DNA of 16,828 nt, taken from NCBI GenBank assembly GCA_027460535.1, contig JAPZAR010000013.1, positions 1 to 16,828 on the forward strand. Reading direction: 5' to 3'. The notes beneath the pieces are model-generated. The model ran no database searches. It had not been told where the DNA came from and saw nothing but the letters and a program-made list of their open reading frames with translations. A program made the translations under genes and the position numbers. Shown one piece after another: positions 314-16,828 of this stretch (the stretch's first letter is position 1; each line of letters begins with the position of its first letter). The stretch is from Candidatus Methanoperedens sp. Lineage in GTDB: Archaea; Halobacteriota; Methanosarcinia; Methanosarcinales; Methanoperedenaceae.

Positions 314-802
314 ATGAAGTTCTCAAGTTTCGGGACAACGATAAACTCTCAAGAGATCGTAAACTCAATTACCCGGCACGGGGCCCCGGTATTCCATACG
401 TCCGAGATGCATATCAAGCCTTTCATATGCAGGGAGAGCGTTTGCAACCTTGCCGACATTATCGCCGTTTTCAAAAAAGATGAGAGATTCCATATCGTTG
501 GTATTGAGATAAAGGAATGGAATAGCACAGTACATCCAAAACTTGCAGTGGAATACCTGGAAACATACAGGCAGACATGTGAATACTTCTATCTTGCAGC
601 GAAACACTTCTCCAGTGGCACTCTTGAGGTGAAAGAAATAGGACTGCTTGACCTGACAGACATGAAAGTCGTTAAGGATCCTGCATATCTATTCCCGGAT
701 CCGGATTTCAGGGCAAATATGATGAAAAGGATAAAAAAACATTTCCAGGTTCTCCAGGATGTGGTGGATGATCCGTTCCAGAGGACGCTTTTAGAATTTT
801 AG
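314..802 (+). CDS. hypothetical protein with PD-(D/E)xK (restriction-endonuclease-fold) nuclease-like motif
   Basis: 162-codon ATG ORF. The motif pair NLADIIAV then HIVGIEIKEW gives an acidic residue after a hydrophobic strand followed by E-x-K, the classic PD-(D/E)xK arrangement. TATA-like cttatata at 291-298 lies about 20 nt upstream, suggesting a short or absent leader. No family name can be assigned without a search. Confidence 0.6.
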   Translation: MKFSSFGTTINSQEIVNSITRHGAPVFHTSEMHIKPFICRESVCNLADIIAVFKKDERFHIVGIEIKEWNSTVHPKLAVEYLETYRQTCEYFYLAAKHFSSGTLEVKEIGLLDLTDMKVVKDPAYLFPDPDFRANMMKRIKKHFQVLQDVVDDPFQRTLLEF

Positions 803-1557: not shown

Positions 1558-2373
1558 TTACAGAATATATGTCCTAACTGCCTCAACCAGTACCTGATAT
1601 GAAATCCACAGCATCCAGATGGTGATTGCTAAGAAAAATATCGCGAAAAGTAACTTTGCAAACCCTGTAATCATCTTATTGCCTCCCCTGCTCTCAATTT
1701 TATTTACTGGAGCATTGATTACATAGTTCCCCATTACCTCTTCATATTCGAGAGGATGCTCATGGCGCAGTTCCTCTTCTGAAATAGTACCTGTTAACCA
1801 GGACATATTAGGGAATTTTTCCAGATGCTCATCATAGAAGTGTCCGATGAACACCGCAATGGAAGCAAGAACCGCCTCCCATGTGTGGAAAAGGTTAGCG
1901 ACCTGGATGATACCTATGGGAAAGTACTGCATGGCCTCAAAGGGCTTCCACATCAATATCCCGGTAAAACCCATAACGACAGCTCCAAATCCTGCTCCGA
2001 AATATTCGAACTTCTGTTTCCATGTATATCTTCCGGATTTGGGACGCTCATCTGAATATCGTAAGGAATATCGAATCTGCTGCAGAAAGTTGCTAATATC
2101 ATCCATATTAAATAATACGTCATAGCGTGGTTTCTCCAAAATATGGTAAACCACATGATATACGCTTACACCGATCATTATCAGGCCTGCACCATGGTGT
2201 ATAAAGGTCCTGTTATCAAAACCACCCACAGATGAAATCATCCATTTAGACCACCATTCGTCAGGGAACATCAGGGGAAAACCCGTATAAGCCAGCAATA
2301 TAAACGTTGAAAAAAATATTATATGCTCGATACGCTGGTTAAGAGTGAACCTCTTGAATTTAAACTCTGGCAC
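1558..2373 (-). CDS. b-type cytochrome, FdnI/HydC-like (formate dehydrogenase gamma / Ni-Fe hydrogenase cytochrome b family), 5 predicted TM helices
   Basis: N-terminus KRFTLNQRIEHIIFFSTFILLAYTG is typical of this family. Conserved-looking His sit in TM segments (RIEH, FIHHGAG, VYHVVYH, LFHTWEA, IGHFYDEH). GTG start at 2373 is preceded by AGGAGGG (2381-2387 on the + strand, read as complement). It lies 1 nt after the TGA of the upstream cytochrome c gene. Confidence 0.8.
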   Translation of the reverse strand: MPEFKFKRFTLNQRIEHIIFFSTFILLAYTGFPLMFPDEWWSKWMISSVGGFDNRTFIHHGAGLIMIGVSVYHVVYHILEKPRYDVLFNMDDISNFLQQIRYSLRYSDERPKSGRYTWKQKFEYFGAGFGAVVMGFTGILMWKPFEAMQYFPIGIIQVANLFHTWEAVLASIAVFIGHFYDEHLEKFPNMSWLTGTISEEELRHEHPLEYEEVMGNYVINAPVNKIESRGGNKMITGFAKLLFAIFFLAITIWMLWISYQVLVEAVRTYIL

Positions 2374-2374
2374 C

Positions 2375-3241
2375 TCATTCCCTCCTTTTTATCTCGAACT
2401 TTGAATTAATATCAAGGGATATAAGCCCCAGTGTAAAGGCGACTTCAAACAGGATCATAAGTATGTAGAAATAGGTTACAAGTTTTTTAGCATCAATGGA
2501 TAGTAAGTAAACAGACTGCCCTTCGTGAATCTTACCTCCATAAATCAGCTTACTTTGACCTGGGTGGCAGCCAGGTTTTCCACATGTAGAAGGAAGATTT
2601 GCTGGATATATTGACGATGTGGGATCGCTTTGATCTTTCGTATCATGGTTTTCATGACAATCCGGACATGTTGCAACCCCTTTTCCTCCTGAAATAAGTG
2701 CTTTATAGTGATATGAATTTTTATAGGTATCAAATCTATCCGTCTGAATCCCGTAGTACCATGCGCTCATCTTGGTCTGATTTTCATGACAACTCGCGCA
2801 GAGTTGAGGAACATTTCCTGAATAAGTCATGGATCCAGGGTTTTTGGAGGATAGAATATTATGGGTTCCGTGGCAATCTGTGCATGTAGGTGCTATTCCG
2901 TGTCCGTTTTCAAGCTCTTTCCAGTGTATGCTTTCTTTGTATAGTCTGGTCTCCTCACGATGGCATGTGGAGCATAAATCAGAGATATTAGTTCGTGTTG
3001 GTACACCTGTAAAATTTGTGCTCATGACGTTTACTGATATTGTGGACCCATTGACATGTATTTCCCCGCCGTGACAGTCAATACATGAAATATTTTTATT
3101 AAAGTGCACGCTTTCCATTAACTCATTCACCTGTTTGGAATGACAATGGAAACATGATACATCCTCGTTTTGCCCGGATACTACTTCGATCCCTGCCAGT
3201 ATTAAGAGTCCTGCGATGAAAAATAAATCTAATCTGTTCAT
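2375..3241 (-). CDS. multihaem c-type cytochrome (6 CxxCH + 1 CxxxxCH), signal peptide and C-terminal TM anchor
   Basis: Haem motifs CFHCH, CIDCH, CSTCH, CTDCH, CASCH, CPDCH and CGKPGCH. At least 8 additional His are available as distal ligands. N-terminal MNRLDLFFIAGLLILAGIEVVSG looks like a signal peptide. C-terminal LVTYFYILMILFEVAFTLGLISL is a TM helix. The ORF opens with TTG at 3247; the first ATG is at 3241. Confidence 0.9.
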   Translation of the reverse strand: MNRLDLFFIAGLLILAGIEVVSGQNEDVSCFHCHSKQVNELMESVHFNKNISCIDCHGGEIHVNGSTISVNVMSTNFTGVPTRTNISDLCSTCHREETRLYKESIHWKELENGHGIAPTCTDCHGTHNILSSKNPGSMTYSGNVPQLCASCHENQTKMSAWYYGIQTDRFDTYKNSYHYKALISGGKGVATCPDCHENHDTKDQSDPTSSIYPANLPSTCGKPGCHPGQSKLIYGGKIHEGQSVYLLSIDAKKLVTYFYILMILFEVAFTLGLISLDINSKFEIKRRE

Positions 3242-3269
3242 ACTCAAGCCCGGAAAAATCCACTGGTTT

Positions 3270-3581
3270 CTATTTTATCACAGCGGTGTATTCTTCATGC
3301 AGGATTCTTTCTTTCTCTCTTTTGAGTTCTTCCTCCCTGCGGGCAATGGCTTTCATGGCCTCAGTTGGTTTTACAGTCACCGTAATCCTGTTCTTCCTAT
3401 CCCTCATAGATACTACAAGCCCATAGACCAGAAGTACAACTGCAGCCACTGGAATAAGGAACAGCCATCCCATAACGAAAGCCATAAAAACTCCAGCTAT
3501 CAAAGAAGTTGTATACTTTGCCCATCTGGGCATCTTCCATTTCTCCCTGTCAAATTTGTTCATGTCGTATTTCATACTCAT
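3270..3581 (-). CDS. small membrane protein (103 aa, 2 predicted TM helices, charged helical C-terminus), unknown family
   Basis: ATG at 3581 overlaps the upstream stop (ATGA). AAGGAGGAA lies immediately upstream; a second in-frame ATG at 3575 has better spacing. Hydrophobic SLIAGVFMAFVMGWLFLIPVAAVVLLVYGLVV is followed by the KAIARREEELKREKERIL tail. Confidence 0.6.
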   Translation of the reverse strand: MSMKYDMNKFDREKWKMPRWAKYTTSLIAGVFMAFVMGWLFLIPVAAVVLLVYGLVVSMRDRKNRITVTVKPTEAMKAIARREEELKREKERILHEEYTAVIK

Positions 3582-3757
3582 TTCCTCCTTTTCTCAAAAA
3601 ACAACTTATATATCAAAATCACTATCAGGATTAACGGGATGCCAGGAGACACCCACAAAACAAAAGCCATGAACGCCTCTGCCGGGTAATAATAAGCAGC
3701 TACCATAATTGCTACTGCTGCTGCCGCAGCTGCAACATATTTTATTCTTTTGGCCAT
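3578..3757 (-). CDS. small membrane protein (59 aa, 2 predicted TM helices), unknown family
   Basis: The track ORF runs to 3805, but the internal ATG at 3757 is preceded by GGGGAG (complement of 3766-3771), giving MAKRIKYVAAAAAAVAIMVAAYYYPAEAFMAFVLWVSPGIPLILIVILIYKLFFEKRRK. There is a 4-nt overlap with the next gene. Confidence 0.5.
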   Translation of the reverse strand: MAKRIKYVAAAAAAVAIMVAAYYYPAEAFMAFVLWVSPGIPLILIVILIYKLFFEKRRK

Positions 3758-4317
3758 GAATTGCTCCCCTATGGTACCTATAGTATTCGTATCATCACCT
3801 CGCAAAAATTATCCCGGATTTCCCCATATGGTCTATTATGTCTCTTATCGCAGCACTGAATTTGCCATTATGCCATACAATGTGAGGTTCCATTTTCTTG
3901 ATACAATTATTATCAATGGAAATATGCCTTGTAACTATCATGTTCCACTACCCTGAGTTATGATGCTTGGACTCATCAGCCCGACCCTCATTTTTCCTAT
4001 TTTATCCAAATATCCATTCGACCAAAGTCGACCTTTTTGAGGCTGACGGATTCCCTCTTGAAGTTTTTGAGCCTTTTTATCAGTAACCAATTTCAGATTC
4101 AAGCTTTTTATCCAAGCCCCATTATAATCTGGTTTGCTAACGTAAATAATTTGCTATTCGCGATTGAGCATTTGGGACGAAAGTCGGATTCTACACGGAT
4201 ATACGCAAACTTTATATATCATGTTCGCATATCATCGAAGCACAGTGGGCAGAAAAATAACTTTTTTAAAACCACCATCCAACCCAACCTGCCCACTAAC
4301 CACTATTTTCATTTAAA

Positions 4318-5226
4318 TTATATAACAGCAGGAAGTCTTTTTTGAGAAATCGCTATTTTCTCTTCAAAACCCGGGTCTTTTATTTCATTCAAATGCAGTC
4401 CGACTTCTTCCGGAGAATATCCAAGCGCCATGCCGAGCAACTGGCTATAATGAACAACGGGAATATTATAGGTCTCTCCCACAGCTTTTAGTTCGACCTG
4501 TCCGGCATCGTACTGCATATGGCAAAAGGGACATGCGTCCACGATGCAGTCCACGCCGGCCTTTTTTATCCTCTTGAGCTTGTATTCTGTCATTTTGATA
4601 GATGTTTCTGGCATAGCAGACCGGACACCTCCTCCTGCCCCGCAGCAGCTTGTCTTACCTTCATACCGGACACTTTCTGCGCCCGTTGCTTCTACAAGCT
4701 CATCGAAAAACACGGGACATTCAGCTTTCCCAAGCTTCCTGTCCCTTGTGGGTTTCAAGAGATGGCATCCGTAATGCACGGCTGCCCTGATCCCAAGGGG
4801 TTTCTCTATGGACTTTCCCAGGTTCTCAGGTCCAATATCCCTGTAGAGGAATTCGATTATGTGCCTGACCTCGATAGTGCCGCGGAATTCTTTTCCGATT
4901 TTTTTTAAATGTGCATTCACTTCGTTCCTCAGGGTTACATCGCTCTTCAGGATATCGTTGGCATCCATCAACGAACTGAAACACCCGTTGCATAATGTCA
5001 GGATGTCGGTATTTTTCGCTTCAGCCAGCACGAGGTTTCTCGATGCCAGAGTCAGCCACGTGACCCTGTCAAATGAACGAAATACGCCAGGGGCAGGGCA
5101 ACATGCAGCTTCTTCGAGTTCGCTCCATTTGATCCCGAGCCTGTCCAGGACAAGCTTCGTGGCCTTTTCAATGCCGGGATAGCGATTGGGGATGAGACAT
5201 CCCAGAAAAAGAGATAACTCCTTCAT
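4318..5226 (-). CDS. hdrB: heterodisulfide reductase subunit B (two CCG domains)
   Basis: N-terminus MKELSLFLGCLIPNRYPGIEKATKLVLDRLGI...AACCPAPGVFRSFD closely matches remembered HdrB sequences. Second CCG motif is SCCGAGGG, plus CNGC and CPFCH. 4-nt overlap with hdrC. Confidence 0.9.
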   Translation of the reverse strand: MKELSLFLGCLIPNRYPGIEKATKLVLDRLGIKWSELEEAACCPAPGVFRSFDRVTWLTLASRNLVLAEAKNTDILTLCNGCFSSLMDANDILKSDVTLRNEVNAHLKKIGKEFRGTIEVRHIIEFLYRDIGPENLGKSIEKPLGIRAAVHYGCHLLKPTRDRKLGKAECPVFFDELVEATGAESVRYEGKTSCCGAGGGVRSAMPETSIKMTEYKLKRIKKAGVDCIVDACPFCHMQYDAGQVELKAVGETYNIPVVHYSQLLGMALGYSPEEVGLHLNEIKDPGFEEKIAISQKRLPAVI

Positions 5227-5720
5227 TCTTTTATCAGCTCATTGAATCCTGTCGATTCAAGAAGTTTCTTTATGTCCGTGAGGGCTTTTGGATACTTGTG
5301 GACAGTCTCAGGCAATCCCAGTCCTATTTTTTTTCGAACTGCGATGTGCTTGTCGTCTATTGGGATGGCTTGCCCTGTTTCGACTAAGAAATTGCATACC
5401 TTCCTGTGGGCAGGAAGTATATGCCCTTTTTTCACTGCATTGCTTCTCAAGATGAGTATCTCGTCTGTTATTTTTATCCCGCGAGGGCACCGTTCCTGGC
5501 AATTGTAGCAGGTGGTACACAACCAGAGATCAGGATCTGAAGATGTATCCTTCTTTACTGAATCCCTGACAATCCGCCTGACATTCAGGCTTGTATACCT
5601 GCCTGACGGGCAGCTGCCCGTGCAGGTACCGCACTGGAAACAGGTAAGTATCTTTGAAAATTCAGTCGAATATTTAGAGGTCAAAGGCTTATCTGAATTT
5701 TCAAACTCGGAATTTTTCAT
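5223..5720 (-). CDS. hdrC: heterodisulfide reductase subunit C (2x[4Fe-4S] ferredoxin-like)
   Basis: CFQCGTCTGSCPSGR and LWLCTTCYNCQERCPRGI cluster motifs, then a helical tail ending HRKVCNFLVETGQAIPIDD, as in HdrC. Confidence 0.9.
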   Translation of the reverse strand: MKNSEFENSDKPLTSKYSTEFSKILTCFQCGTCTGSCPSGRYTSLNVRRIVRDSVKKDTSSDPDLWLCTTCYNCQERCPRGIKITDEILILRSNAVKKGHILPAHRKVCNFLVETGQAIPIDDKHIAVRKKIGLGLPETVHKYPKALTDIKKLLESTGFNELIKE

Positions 5721-6014: not shown

Positions 6015-6614
6015 TCACACTCCCGGTATGAATAAAGCGTGTAGCGGATATACTTCTATAACTGGTTCTGTCTCCGTCATTTTTCCAATCACGGGCATAA
6101 GTCTTTCCCGGGTATAGTTATTAAAATCTTCTTCAGATTCCCATATATCACTAACTCTTATGCCTTTGTCATCGAATGTGACAATATGAAGCACTAACCC
6201 TTCAGGGACATCGCCTTCAAAATCTACTTGTTTTCTCCCCTCTTCATACATTTCTTTTGTAAATCCTTCCCATTTTAGGAGTAAAACTATGCGCGTATTC
6301 AGTCCTTCTCCTCTTCGCTCAGGAATGAATAAATTGTGCAGTGGATATACTTCTACATCCGGTTCCACATCTATCAATTCTTTGGTCACGGCCATTAGTC
6401 TATTTTGGACAAAGTCATTGAAGTCCCTCTCAGATTTCCATACATCCGTAACTCGTGCTCCTTTGTCGTCAAATGTAGCAATATGAAGTACTGCTCCTTT
6501 TGGGACTTCCCCTTCCCAGTTCACTTGTTCTCTCGCCTTTTCATAGAGTTCTTTTGTAACTCCTGTCCATTGCATAAGCATAACTATGCGTTTTTCTTCT
6601 GATCTCTTTGTCAT
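6015..6614 (-). CDS. tandem-duplicated ABM/Dabb-like (ferredoxin-fold, antibiotic-biosynthesis-monooxygenase-like) protein
   Basis: Two ~92-aa halves align end to end at roughly 60% identity by eye: RIVMLMQWTGVTKELYEKAREQVNWEGEVPKGAVLHIATFDDKGARVTDVWKSERDF...EVYPLHNLFIP versus RIVLLLKWEGFTKEMYEEGRKQVDFEGDVPEGLVLHIVTFDDKGIRVSDIWESEEDF...EVYPLHALFIP. Strong RBS GAGGAGGT is the complement of 6619-6626. Confidence 0.75.
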   Translation of the reverse strand: MTKRSEEKRIVMLMQWTGVTKELYEKAREQVNWEGEVPKGAVLHIATFDDKGARVTDVWKSERDFNDFVQNRLMAVTKELIDVEPDVEVYPLHNLFIPERRGEGLNTRIVLLLKWEGFTKEMYEEGRKQVDFEGDVPEGLVLHIVTFDDKGIRVSDIWESEEDFNNYTRERLMPVIGKMTETEPVIEVYPLHALFIPGV

Positions 6615-13014: not shown

Positions 13015-13656
13015 TTGGAACATGAAACGATAGTAACAGCTGTGAAACAGGCATTAGAAAAAGCTCCACAGCGTAAATTTTCAGAAAGTATTGACCTGGC
13101 GATCAATCTTAAAAATCTTGATATGAACCAGCCGCAGAACAGGTTCGACGAAGAGATCATCCTGCCGCACGGCGTGGGTAAACCGATCAAGATCGCGGTA
13201 TTTGCAAAAGGTGAGACCGCCCAGAGGGCAAAAGCGGCAGGTGCTGATTATGTTTTTGATCCTGAGGAAATCAATGTGCTCGGAGAAGACAAAGCAAGGG
13301 CAAAAACCCTTGCCGAAGAAGTCAATTTTTTTATCTCAGAGTCGGCATACATGCCAATAATTGGTAAAACCCTTGGTCAGGTACTCGGTCCCAGGGGAAA
13401 AATGCCCATACCCCTGACCCCGGATAAGGATATTGTCCAGATAATCAACAAGTCAAAGAACTCAATTAAGGTGAGATCCAAGGATAAGATGACATTCCAC
13501 ATCTCGATCGGAAGAAAGGAAATGGACCCGGTGAAGGTATCGGAGAATGTCGAGGCTATAATAAATCGTATAGAGCACAAGTACGAACGCGGCCTATATA
13601 ATGTTAAATCGGTGTATGTTAAAACGACCATGGGGCCATCAGTGAGGGTGATTTAA
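13015..13656 (+). CDS. rpl1: 50S ribosomal protein L1 (uL1)
   Basis: KQALEKAPQRKFSESIDLAINLK and MPIIGKTLGQVLGPRGKMPIPL are typical uL1 sequences. TTG start at 13015 follows GGGAGGAA. The only nearby ATG (13022) is out of frame. Confidence 0.9.
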   Translation: MEHETIVTAVKQALEKAPQRKFSESIDLAINLKNLDMNQPQNRFDEEIILPHGVGKPIKIAVFAKGETAQRAKAAGADYVFDPEEINVLGEDKARAKTLAEEVNFFISESAYMPIIGKTLGQVLGPRGKMPIPLTPDKDIVQIINKSKNSIKVRSKDKMTFHISIGRKEMDPVKVSENVEAIINRIEHKYERGLYNVKSVYVKTTMGPSVRVI

Positions 13657-14685
13657 ATGGCGGCAGAACTAAAACACCACAGTATCCATATCCCTCAATG
13701 GAAAAAAGATGAAGTTGAGACTATAAAGAAGCTGCTAACAAATTATTCTTCCACAGGCATTGTCGGGGTCCATGGCATTCCTTCAAGCCAGCTTCAAATA
13801 ATGCGAAAGAACCTTCGCGGTATGGCTGATATAAAGATGTGCAGGAATTCGCTCATTTTCCGTGCCCTGGACGAATCCGCGGATAATATAAAACAGATAG
13901 AAAAATATGTGGATTCCCAGACCGCTTTATTATTCACGAATGAGAATCCTTTTAAACTTTATAAGATACTGCAAAAAGGGAAGACCGAGGCCCCCATTAA
14001 AGCAGGCGGTATCGCACCAAAGGATATAATTGTGCAGAAAGGCCCGACCTCATTCCCGCCAGGGCCGATCGTGGGAGAATTGCAGGGTGCTGGAATACCT
14101 GCAGGGATAGAAGGCGGGAAGGTCGTGATCCGAGAGACGAAGACCGTAGCCAGACAGGGTGATGTAGTAGATGCCAAACTTGCATCCATCCTTTCACGTC
14201 TCGGTATTCGTCCAGTCGAACTTGGGCTTGACCTTCGTGCGGTATACGAGAAAGGCATGGTATACGAGTCGATATTGTTGGCTGTGGATGAGACAAAATA
14301 CAGAAGCGATCTGACGCTTGCGGTGCAGCGGGCGTTCAACCTGTCCATTAATTCAGCATATCCGGCAAAAGCCACGATCAGCACACTGCTTACCAAAGCG
14401 GCCTCTCAGTCGAGGAATCTTGCTATCAATGCAGAGATAATAATGCCTGATATCATCGATGTACTGCTTGCAAAAGGTAATTTACAGATGCTATCCCTTG
14501 CGAAGATCGCATCTGTTAAAGATGCAAATGCAGTCAGTGCCAGGCTAAAGGAAAAGCTTGCTGCAGCACCCAGGGAAGAAAAGAAGCCCGAGGCAGCGGC
14601 TCCCAAGGAAGCCAAGGAAGAGAAGAAAAAGGAAGAACACAAGGAATCAGATATTGCAGCGGGCCTGGGCTCGCTGTTCGGTTAA
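13657..14685 (+). CDS. rpl10: 50S ribosomal protein L10 / acidic P0 (uL10)
   Basis: The ATG directly abuts the rpl1 TAA. IPQWKKDEVETIKKLL N-terminus, a Lys/Glu/Ala-rich hinge and the stalk tail AAGLGSLFG. Confidence 0.9.
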   Translation: MAAELKHHSIHIPQWKKDEVETIKKLLTNYSSTGIVGVHGIPSSQLQIMRKNLRGMADIKMCRNSLIFRALDESADNIKQIEKYVDSQTALLFTNENPFKLYKILQKGKTEAPIKAGGIAPKDIIVQKGPTSFPPGPIVGELQGAGIPAGIEGGKVVIRETKTVARQGDVVDAKLASILSRLGIRPVELGLDLRAVYEKGMVYESILLAVDETKYRSDLTLAVQRAFNLSINSAYPAKATISTLLTKAASQSRNLAINAEIIMPDIIDVLLAKGNLQMLSLAKIASVKDANAVSARLKEKLAAAPREEKKPEAAAPKEAKEEKKKEEHKESDIAAGLGSLFG

Positions 14686-14706
14686 GCTAAATAAAAGGTG
14701 ATTAAA

Positions 14707-15018
14707 ATGGAATACGTATATGCAGCGCTATTATTACACAGCGCAGGAAAGAAAGTAACAGATGAAGCAATTACTGCCGTGATAAAGGCAGCAGGTATGG
14801 AAGTCGATGCAGTGAGAGCCAAAGCTCTTGTTTCCGCTCTTGAAGGTGTCAATATCGAGGAAGCCATCTCAAAGGCGGCTTTCGCGGCACCAGCAGCAGC
14901 GGCTCCGGCGGCAGCGGCTCCAGCGGCAGCAGAAGCTCCAAAGAAAGAAGAAAATCCAAAAGAGAAAGAGAAAGCTGAAGAAAGCGGAATGGAAGGACTC
15001 GGCGCCCTTTTCGGGTGA
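14707..15018 (+). CDS. rpl12: 50S ribosomal protein L12 / P1 stalk protein
   Basis: [30 protein letters not shown], an Ala/Pro hinge and the tail [10 protein letters not shown]. The ATG at 14707 follows AAGGTGA. The track ORF starts at an upstream GTG (14698). Confidence 0.9.

Positions 15019-15900: not shown

Positions 15901-16828
<928 letters not shown>

Follow-up and report, generated by a model that had tools for sequence, protein, structure and literature searches.

Introduction

Five menaquinone:cytochrome c oxidoreductase clusters have been catalogued in the Methanoperedenaceae by Leu et al. 2020 (mBio, PMC7327174), who read them as quinol oxidases. In Data Set S1A of that paper (PMC7327174), group 4 consists of a 6 heme c-type cytochrome and a cytochrome b (e.g. 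BLZ2_01084/01083), and group 2, which lies three genes from group 4, of a 7 heme cytochrome, a 4Fe-4S protein and NrfD (BLZ2_01079-01077). Here, we describe a locus in a 16,828-nucleotide stretch of DNA from Candidatus Methanoperedens sp. (assembly GCA_027460535.1, contig JAPZAR010000013.1; the whole stretch is called the window below), in which genes coding for a multihaem cytochrome c and a cytochrome b are preceded by two genes for very small membrane proteins, mini59 and mini103. The explanation that we prefer, and consider reasonably probable, is that the cytochrome pair is the known group 4 module and that the small proteins (minis) belong to a family partnered by another protein, C1, whose gene has been deleted here.

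Two further systems resemble the cytochrome pair. CbcBA of Geobacter sulfurreducens combines a dihaem cytochrome b with a 7-haem cytochrome c carrying a C-terminal transmembrane (TM) helix, its operon also encodes two hypothetical proteins and a regulator, and both CbcL and CbcBA act as quinol oxidases (10.1101/2021.04.15.440034). CbcBA is the only close analogue for whose function there is genetic evidence. In the anaerobic methanotrophic archaea (ANME) of groups ANME-2a/2b, Mco is a proposed methanophenazine:cytochrome c oxidoreductase (Chadwick et al. 2022, PMC9012536).

Organisation of the locus

The locus was compared with 28 related loci from genome collections, all of them from Methanoperedenaceae and 67-88% identical, 26 of which contain the cytochrome c gene. 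All open reading frames (ORFs) of the related loci, designated by L numbers, were clustered and the conserved ones were mapped. In the window, the following features were distinguished (aa, amino acids):

1558-2373, minus strand: cytochrome b, 271 aa, GTG start, predicted FdnI/PF01292-type dihaem subunit
2375-3241 (ATG start, 288 aa) or to 3247 (TTG start, 290 aa), minus strand: multihaem cytochrome c
3270-3581, minus strand: mini103, 103 aa, more likely 101 aa from the ATG at 3575
3578-3757, minus strand: mini59, 59 aa, start uncertain (ATG at 3757 or TTG at 3805)
3778-3941, minus strand: C1 remnant (pseudogene), out-of-frame N- and C-terminal pieces of a ~480-aa gene with a probable V4R/Bet3 fold
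3942-4317, minus strand: intergenic region from the hdrB stop to the C1 remnant, presumed promoter region

A preliminary description of this DNA had reported four minus-strand ORFs running head to tail. Their coordinates and gaps were confirmed, and all four genes were also predicted by independent gene callers in four public assemblies, while exact copies of the cytochrome b sequence are present on contigs of the Methanoperedens metagenome-assembled genome GCA_027460495.1 and of two ENA assemblies. The same description had overlooked the pseudogene remnant directly upstream of mini59. Downstream of the intergenic region, all gaps between genes are at most 28 nt and Shine-Dalgarno-like sequences are present. 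The cytochrome c gene follows mini103 at a distance of 22 nt if it starts at TTG and of 28 nt if it starts at ATG, and its junction with the cytochrome b gene is, as first described, TGA, one G and GTG, with an AGGAGG within the last cytochrome c codons. Between the mini59 and mini103 ORFs, the ATGA overlap noted earlier does exist (3578-3581), but the conserved start of mini103 is its second ATG (3575, 101 aa), which has an AGGAGG 8 nt upstream and is the start chosen by the gene callers and in the orthologue of L005, the closest relative. Since the second ATG is the conserved start, the functional junction between both genes is probably stop, 2 nt and ATG, and not ATGA. No ORF kept in relatives was found in 3942-4317 by the ORF clustering, and this region is presumed to contain the promoter that now drives the remnant, both minis and both cytochrome genes.

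The cytochrome pair

The cytochrome c gene lies directly upstream of the cytochrome b gene in all 26 loci that have cytochrome c. Over their full length, the cytochrome b of the window is 67-76% and its cytochrome c 61-67% identical to the proteins encoded in L008 (BLZ2), L014 (FeB_1) and L022 (MnB_21); group 4 had been defined on BLZ2, M. ferrireducens and Mn-1/Mn-2. The gene order in L008 is cytochrome c, cytochrome b, C1, mini, C1, seven-haem cytochrome and an iron-sulfur (FeS) protein with a twin-arginine translocation (TAT) signal, with three genes between the group 4 and group 2 clusters, which fits the numbering from BLZ2_01083 to 01079; NrfD, the remaining component of group 2, is encoded in the Methanoperedens nitroreducens locus L033. 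Since the order in L008 and the BLZ2 numbering agree, we take the cytochrome pair of the window to be the orthologue of the published group 4, the exact match of locus tags being inferred from gene order. Both share the adjacency of the two genes, six CxxCH motifs and the same archaeal family. However, while group 4 has been published as containing 6 haems, this "6-haem" subunit carries an invariant seventh site, CxxxxCH, in the window and its orthologues.

In the cytochrome c of the window, six CxxCH motifs and one CxxxxCH (CGKPGCH) were found, and all seven are kept in 26 of 26 orthologues. Hydrophobic segments are present at 3-24, a signal-like N-terminus, and at 253-279, a C-terminal TM segment that is followed by a basic tail (KRRE), so that the anchored cytochrome c with signal peptide and seven motifs reported previously was recovered in full. 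Compared with L005, the ratio of nonsynonymous to synonymous substitution rates (dN/dS) is 0.11. Pfam matches are partial (NapC/NirT, c3, c7). An identity as a quinol dehydrogenase of the NapC/NirT/NrfH type was considered and rejected: the PF03264 match spans only positions 17-78 of the 174 of the profile, TIGR02161 scores 45.8 bits against a cut-off of 310.6, and the anchor of the cytochrome c is C-terminal whereas that of the tetra- or pentahaem NapC family is N-terminal.

The cytochrome b passes the PF01292 profile with 54.2 bits (E 2e-14; gathering cut-off 30.1). Its histidines H17, H59, H163 and H178 align with the haem ligands H18, H57, H155 and H169 of E. coli FdnI (1KQF_C) and are distributed as in FdnI, with one in TM1, one in TM2 and two in TM4. 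The preliminary description had named a cytochrome b without conserved haem-ligand histidines as an argument against its own proposal; all four align with 1KQF_C and are invariant in 23/23 orthologues. Its assignment as a 5-TM b-type cytochrome resembling FdnI also stands, with four helices homologous to those of FdnI and an extra fifth hydrophobic segment at 232-264. The dN/dS versus L005 is 0.13. In a word-indexed search, the cytochrome b retrieved orthologues of at least 58% identity only, and those with an organism name come from Methanoperedens or unclassified archaea.

Besides the four FdnI-type ligands, H73, H77 and H206 are likewise invariant in the 23 orthologues, and two of these three extra histidines are located at the far end of TM2 (VYHVVYH). 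A part in the quinone site or in an additional cofactor site is conceivable for them.

Compared with FdnI (1KQF chain C), the cytochrome b shares the four-helix dihaem fold and all four ligand histidines. It differs in lacking an FdnG/FdnH partner, in the extra fifth TM segment, in scoring below the equivalog cut-off and, likely, in working in the reverse direction. An identity as the formate dehydrogenase gamma subunit was rejected, as TIGR01583 gives 67.8 bits with a cut-off of 115.85 and the gene next to it codes for a multihaem cytochrome, while subunits with molybdopterin or FeS are absent. With the hydrogenase cytochrome b model TIGR02125 the score is 25.1 bits versus 67.8 for TIGR01583, both below their equivalog cut-offs.

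The architecture of the pair matches that of the inner-membrane quinol oxidases CbcBA (Cbc5) and CbcL, as far as these can be compared by description. CbcB is, however, of the hydrogenase type, with three histidines and a fourth one provided by CbcA, whereas the cytochrome b of the window holds all four, as FdnI does, which argues for a subtype other than CbcB. The regulators differ as well, being a sigma-54 response regulator in the bacterial cbcBA operon and, at Methanoperedens loci, a protein with a predicted V4R fold. Mco follows the same concept, a cytochrome b of the PF01292 superfamily beside a 7-11-haem cytochrome that replaces the catalytic dehydrogenase. McoA is close to the hydrogenase subunit VhtC, and the protein of the window scores much better with the formate dehydrogenase gamma model than with the hydrogenase cytochrome b model (67.8 versus 25.1 bits). 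The window further differs from Mco in the order cytochrome c then cytochrome b, which is reversed in Mco, in its Methanoperedens host and in the quinone.

The pair is best read as a quinol:multihaem-cytochrome oxidoreductase of a kind already described. This upholds the earlier proposal for the two cytochromes, given the 26/26 adjacency, the ligands and the motifs. Of the two quinones that this proposal had considered, menaquinone is favoured over methanophenazine by the family of the host. The FdnI-type dihaem cytochrome b would oxidise menaquinol, and the electrons would traverse the membrane via its two b-haems to the seven-motif cytochrome c on the outer face, from where they may pass on to other multihaem cytochromes or external acceptors. 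In the 1KQF structure, FdnH is anchored by its own C-terminal helix. The cytochrome c could be tethered at the outer face in the same way, by its own C-terminal helix, as FdnH is beside FdnI. Which way the electrons flow, which quinone is used and where its site lies were inferred from the homology to FdnI and from the literature. A quinone site on the cytoplasmic side, as in FdnI, would mean that this step consumes membrane potential instead of building it.

Two small membrane proteins

The preliminary description had recognised no family for the two minis, and this was borne out by searches against Pfam and NCBIfam, in which neither gave a match above the cut-off; the best were DUF350 with 18 bits (26) and bPH_10 with 18.2 (27). 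A search of 5.8 billion proteins retrieved 42 homologues of mini103, of which the few that are named by source or could be traced to a contig are from Methanoperedens, and only 34 representatives of the family were retrieved when 1.84 billion cluster representatives were searched with a profile. The minis thus appear to form a very small family of membrane proteins that is confined to Methanoperedens.

Two TM segments had been assigned to each protein. This is right for mini59, which has apolar segments at 7-26 and 28-50 and no conserved tail, but not for mini103, which has one uninterrupted apolar stretch of 37 residues (23-59), lacks the first TM segment of other family members and was modelled by AlphaFold with helices at 19-67 and 72-102 (predicted local distance difference test, pLDDT, 72), so that the stretch lies within a single helix. 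mini103 ends in a conserved charged tail, RKNRITVxVKPTEAMKAIARREEELKREKE, and the best-conserved part of the family is this tail (RKNRI-V-VKPTEAMKAIARREEELKREKE), which comes after a basic stretch behind the membrane segment. By the positive-inside rule, this basic stretch indicates that the tail is probably cytoplasmic.

A direct BLASTP comparison of mini59 and mini103 was not significant (E 4.1). However, mini59 matches the N-terminal half of family members of ~100 aa with 40-50% identity and E-values down to 1e-13, and mini103 matches the second apolar segment and the tail of the same proteins. Since both match the same intermediate members, mini59 and mini103 are paralogues. Orthologues of mini59 are present in L005 (88%) and L038 (72%). 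The reading frames of the minis stay open down to 58-72% identity, and over five comparisons their dN/dS was 0.21-0.34 (mini59, 0.23-0.31; mini103, 0.21-0.34), which shows them to be genuine coding genes under purifying selection.

C1 and its remnant in the window

C1 proteins are of ~480 aa. A search retrieved 521 homologues, those named by organism being from Methanoperedens or unclassified archaea, and PF27313 (AF_0136_C) was found on all of the 120 matches listed of these 521. The Joint Genome Institute (JGI) names many of the homologues "predicted hydrocarbon binding protein", and V4R occurs in one NCBI name. No match was obtained with a Pfam release predating PF27313 or, using a single C1 sequence, with PDB sequences, while a C1 profile gave a weak match to Bet3 among the latter. 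This agrees with the fold of the AlphaFold model (pLDDT 62), whose more reliable regions gave Foldseek matches to Bet3/TRAPPC3, H-NOX and the aromatic-sensor domain of MopR. Three cysteines are invariant in the V4R-like domain. From these models, C1 is a probable ligand-binding protein of the V4R/Bet3 type, a cytoplasmic sensor and possibly a regulator. Conservation in C1 is highest over the N-terminal 45 residues, which are modelled with helices at 11-23 and 28-41; that they resemble a ribbon-helix-helix domain is a guess based on this pattern.

While the fold was assessed on intact C1 homologues, the window retains ~43 N-terminal and ~9 C-terminal codons of C1. An ORF of 48 aa (3795-3941) clusters with C1 N-termini, and the last nine C1 codons (CEVMIRIL and the stop) are found at 3778-3804 in a different frame from the N-terminal ~43 codons. 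In a DNA alignment of the window with L005, identity resumes at GGGATAATTTTTGCGAGGTGATGATACG, which corresponds to the C1 C-terminus HGDNFCEVMIRVQ followed by the stop codon. The loss amounts to ~425 codons (~1.27 kb), with the junction near 3813-3815, and the spacing and structure of the remnant are identical in three other assemblies. Since the remnant is present and L005 has the intact order (C1, mini, mini, cytochrome c, cytochrome b), the compactness of the four-gene module is secondary. A public protein of 420 aa (P0286), in which C1 residues 1-322 are fused to a complete mini, is probably the product of a deletion between adjacent genes, and this chimera indicates that such deletions recur among the repeated C1/mini genes.

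In M. nitroreducens, another locus (L035, 10001-12338) shows C1 in a third type of setting, without a called mini upstream and with genes for DUF5611 and for an Rv2949c-like protein of the chorismate pyruvate-lyase type downstream. This context could link the C1 family to quinone metabolism.

Synteny of the minis, C1 and the cytochrome clusters

In the relatives, the usual gene order starts with a short mini (55-62 aa) and C1, continues with cytochrome c, cytochrome b and a second C1, and ends with a long mini (~100 aa) and a further C1 before the group 2 cluster. The window differs from it in having C1 remnant, mini, mini and cytochrome c where the others have mini, C1 and cytochrome c. A C1 gene lies within 101 nt downstream, on the same strand, of 32 of the 47 mini ORFs, often at a spacing of 0-40 nt. 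Only in the window, L005 and L013 (with one mini) is a mini located directly before an intact cytochrome c gene among the 28 loci. Conversely, L023, L026 and L028 have the cytochrome pair without mini or C1 in the 5 kb upstream, and so does L025, with a shorter flank. In M. nitroreducens (L033), it is the group 2 cluster that comes after a mini (99 aa) and C1, and no group 4 is present at this locus, nor is a group 4 cluster listed for the genome of this species in the table of Leu 2020 (PMC7327174). L036/L037 contain a lone mini103 homologue (66% identity) among unrelated genes, and L038/L039 an intact pair resembling mini59 and mini103, again with the ATGA overlap, behind which only a degraded piece of cytochrome c, devoid of haem motifs, is left and cytochrome b is missing.

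The minis therefore occur in the same neighbourhoods as pairs of multihaem cytochrome and cytochrome b, where the preliminary description had suggested looking for them, but they are coupled to C1 and not to the pair. Because their constant neighbour is C1, and because pairs and minis also occur apart, the minis are most likely not structural subunits of the cytochrome complex, as judged from gene order.

The pair of L038 (5741-6700), 72% identical to that of the window, is carried by a 94-kb contig (ENA ERZ27247996 k141_1640864) with mostly unannotated genes, an intein-containing helicase and a TROVE/Ro60-like protein. This contig originates from a sample that also yielded one assembly of the genome of the window, and it may be a mobile or extrachromosomal Methanoperedens element.

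Weighing the explanations

According to the explanation that we prefer, the pairs of mini and C1 that precede both the group 4 and the group 2 (cytochrome c, FeS protein and NrfD) clusters in relatives would act on these clusters: the mini would tether or modulate the C1 sensor or regulator at the membrane via its charged tail, and both together would control the adjacent respiratory genes. In the window, the internal deletion destroyed C1, after which the minis came to abut, and probably to be co-transcribed with, the cytochrome genes. A more specific version, which we put forward tentatively and regard as possible but rather unlikely, is that the minis and C1 are an undescribed, Methanoperedens-specific, membrane-tethered sensor pair that switches the extracellular electron transfer modules of group 4 and group 2 on or off, for example by sensing a lipophilic ligand such as the quinone pool, and that the loss of C1 has uncoupled group 4 from this control here. 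Several observations weigh against our explanation. The function of the cytochrome pair has been assigned by bioinformatics only, here and in the literature, and the C1 model is of low overall confidence. No ribbon-helix-helix match was found for the C1 N-terminus in Pfam or among PDB sequences, and its alignment with CopG by hhalign was in register and non-significant (E 0.034, probability 1.5%). A comparison of the mini-family and C1 profiles revealed no relation. In addition, the minis have, almost without exception, a respiratory cytochrome cluster no more than a few kb away, and in the sub-clade of the window (the window, L005, L013 and, ancestrally, L038) they are tight upstream of cytochrome c.

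The last two points are also what would be expected if all four proteins formed one minimal quinol:multihaem-cytochrome oxidoreductase, with the minis as assembly or scaffold components, as had been suggested in the preliminary description. The minis might then also be structural subunits, in the manner of the small ones in bc/b6f complexes. The tight linkage with gaps of at most 28 nt and Shine-Dalgarno-like sequences, the order mini59, mini103 and cytochrome c in L005 and ancestrally in L038, the single mini in L013 and the purifying selection on the minis are in line with such a complex. Nevertheless, in most loci a C1 gene of 1.4 kb intervenes between mini and cytochrome c, with only 0-101 nt between mini and C1; three or four loci have the pair without a mini within 5 kb (L023, L026 and L028 among them), and minis occur without the pair, before the unrelated NrfD-type cluster (L033), alone (L036) or beside a decayed cytochrome c (L038). 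Moreover, the conserved part of the mini is the charged tail and not the membrane segment. The proposal of novel subunits is thus the weaker reading, and we consider the four-protein complex doubtful. The opposite suspicion, that the mini-ORFs are spurious or decaying, non-functional leftovers, might be raised by their very short length, the neighbouring pseudogene and the lack of an annotated family above threshold, but it hardly deserves credence, considering that the frames are intact at 58-72% identity, that dN/dS is 0.21-0.34, that the tail motif is kept and that the genes were called independently.

Two other alternatives concern the cytochromes. Electrons from outside (reduced metals, humics, cathodes or partner cells) might enter through the cytochrome c and reduce menaquinone, in a manner similar to Fdh-N with the cytochrome replacing FdnGH. 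The sequence is compatible with either direction, and the closest homologue of the cytochrome b, FdnI, is a quinone reductase fed at the outer face. However, Methanoperedens oxidises methane and delivers electrons to nitrate, Fe(III), Mn(IV) or anodes, and the literature (PMC7327174) reads the clusters as quinol oxidases, as is the case for Geobacter CbcL and CbcBA, for which reasons we find the reverse direction improbable. As for hdrC-hdrB (4318-5720), which are situated 561 nt upstream on the same strand and match TIGR03290 (HdrC, 186 bits) and TIGR03288 (HdrB, 430 bits) at equivalog level, they could in principle form an HdrDE-like membrane heterodisulfide reductase with the cytochrome b. 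This is very improbable, because they adjoin the pair only in the genome of the window and in none of the 28 related loci, because the C1 remnant lies between, so that their adjacency would be a secondary rearrangement, and because the cytochrome b is of the FdnI type.

The surrounding window

The remaining assigned features of the window are the following:

4318-5226, minus strand: hdrB (TIGR03288, equivalog level)
5223-5720, minus strand: hdrC (TIGR03290, equivalog level)
13015-15018, plus strand: operon for ribosomal proteins L1, L10 and L12 (P-stalk), upstream of the 16S rRNA
15901-16828, plus strand: archaeal 16S rRNA, first 933 positions, cut by the end of the window

Since hdrC/hdrB, the ribosomal protein operon and the 16S rRNA are all present, the window is chromosomal. 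hdrB and hdrC overlap by 4 nt without an adjacent hdrA, and their position beside the cytochrome module is unique among the loci examined. In L001 (12354-13826), just past position 1 of the window, a DDE (IS4-like) transposase gene starts at the left edge of the window, and a gene for a type I restriction R subunit comes next; the region around the locus is rearranged. Two conserved ORFs, at 6015-6614 (minus strand, 199 aa) and 314-802 (plus strand, 162 aa), match no Pfam family, and the former none in NCBIfam either.

Between the cytochrome b stop and a VIT1-family gene, the stretch 1380-1557 has a G+C content of ~60% in a window of ~42%. A permissive Rfam scan of 1300-1620 gave no match, and neither strand of the G+C-rich stretch folded better than shuffled sequences did (z = -0.25 and +0.86). 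For the whole window, Rfam at gathering thresholds detected the 16S rRNA only, and no tRNA was found.

Implications

The locus adds no new kind of module, and the association of minis with C1 is a modest new observation. Neither C1 nor mini genes are listed in the gene table of Data Set S1A of Leu 2020, the pairing is absent from it, the terms 'V4R' and 'hydrocarbon binding' are absent from the supplements (PMC7327174), and a literature search for Methanoperedens with V4R found no paper. In these archaea, genes for a small membrane protein and for a protein with a probable V4R fold are regularly situated ahead of the group 4 and group 2 clusters, and these accessory genes have been gained, lost and recombined between strains. 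How Methanoperedens passes electrons gained from methane on from its quinone pool, be it to nitrate, metals or electrodes, is so far a purely genomic model. If it is true that mini and C1 regulate the use of quinol oxidases, they would provide a handle on the choice of acceptor in anaerobic methane oxidation.

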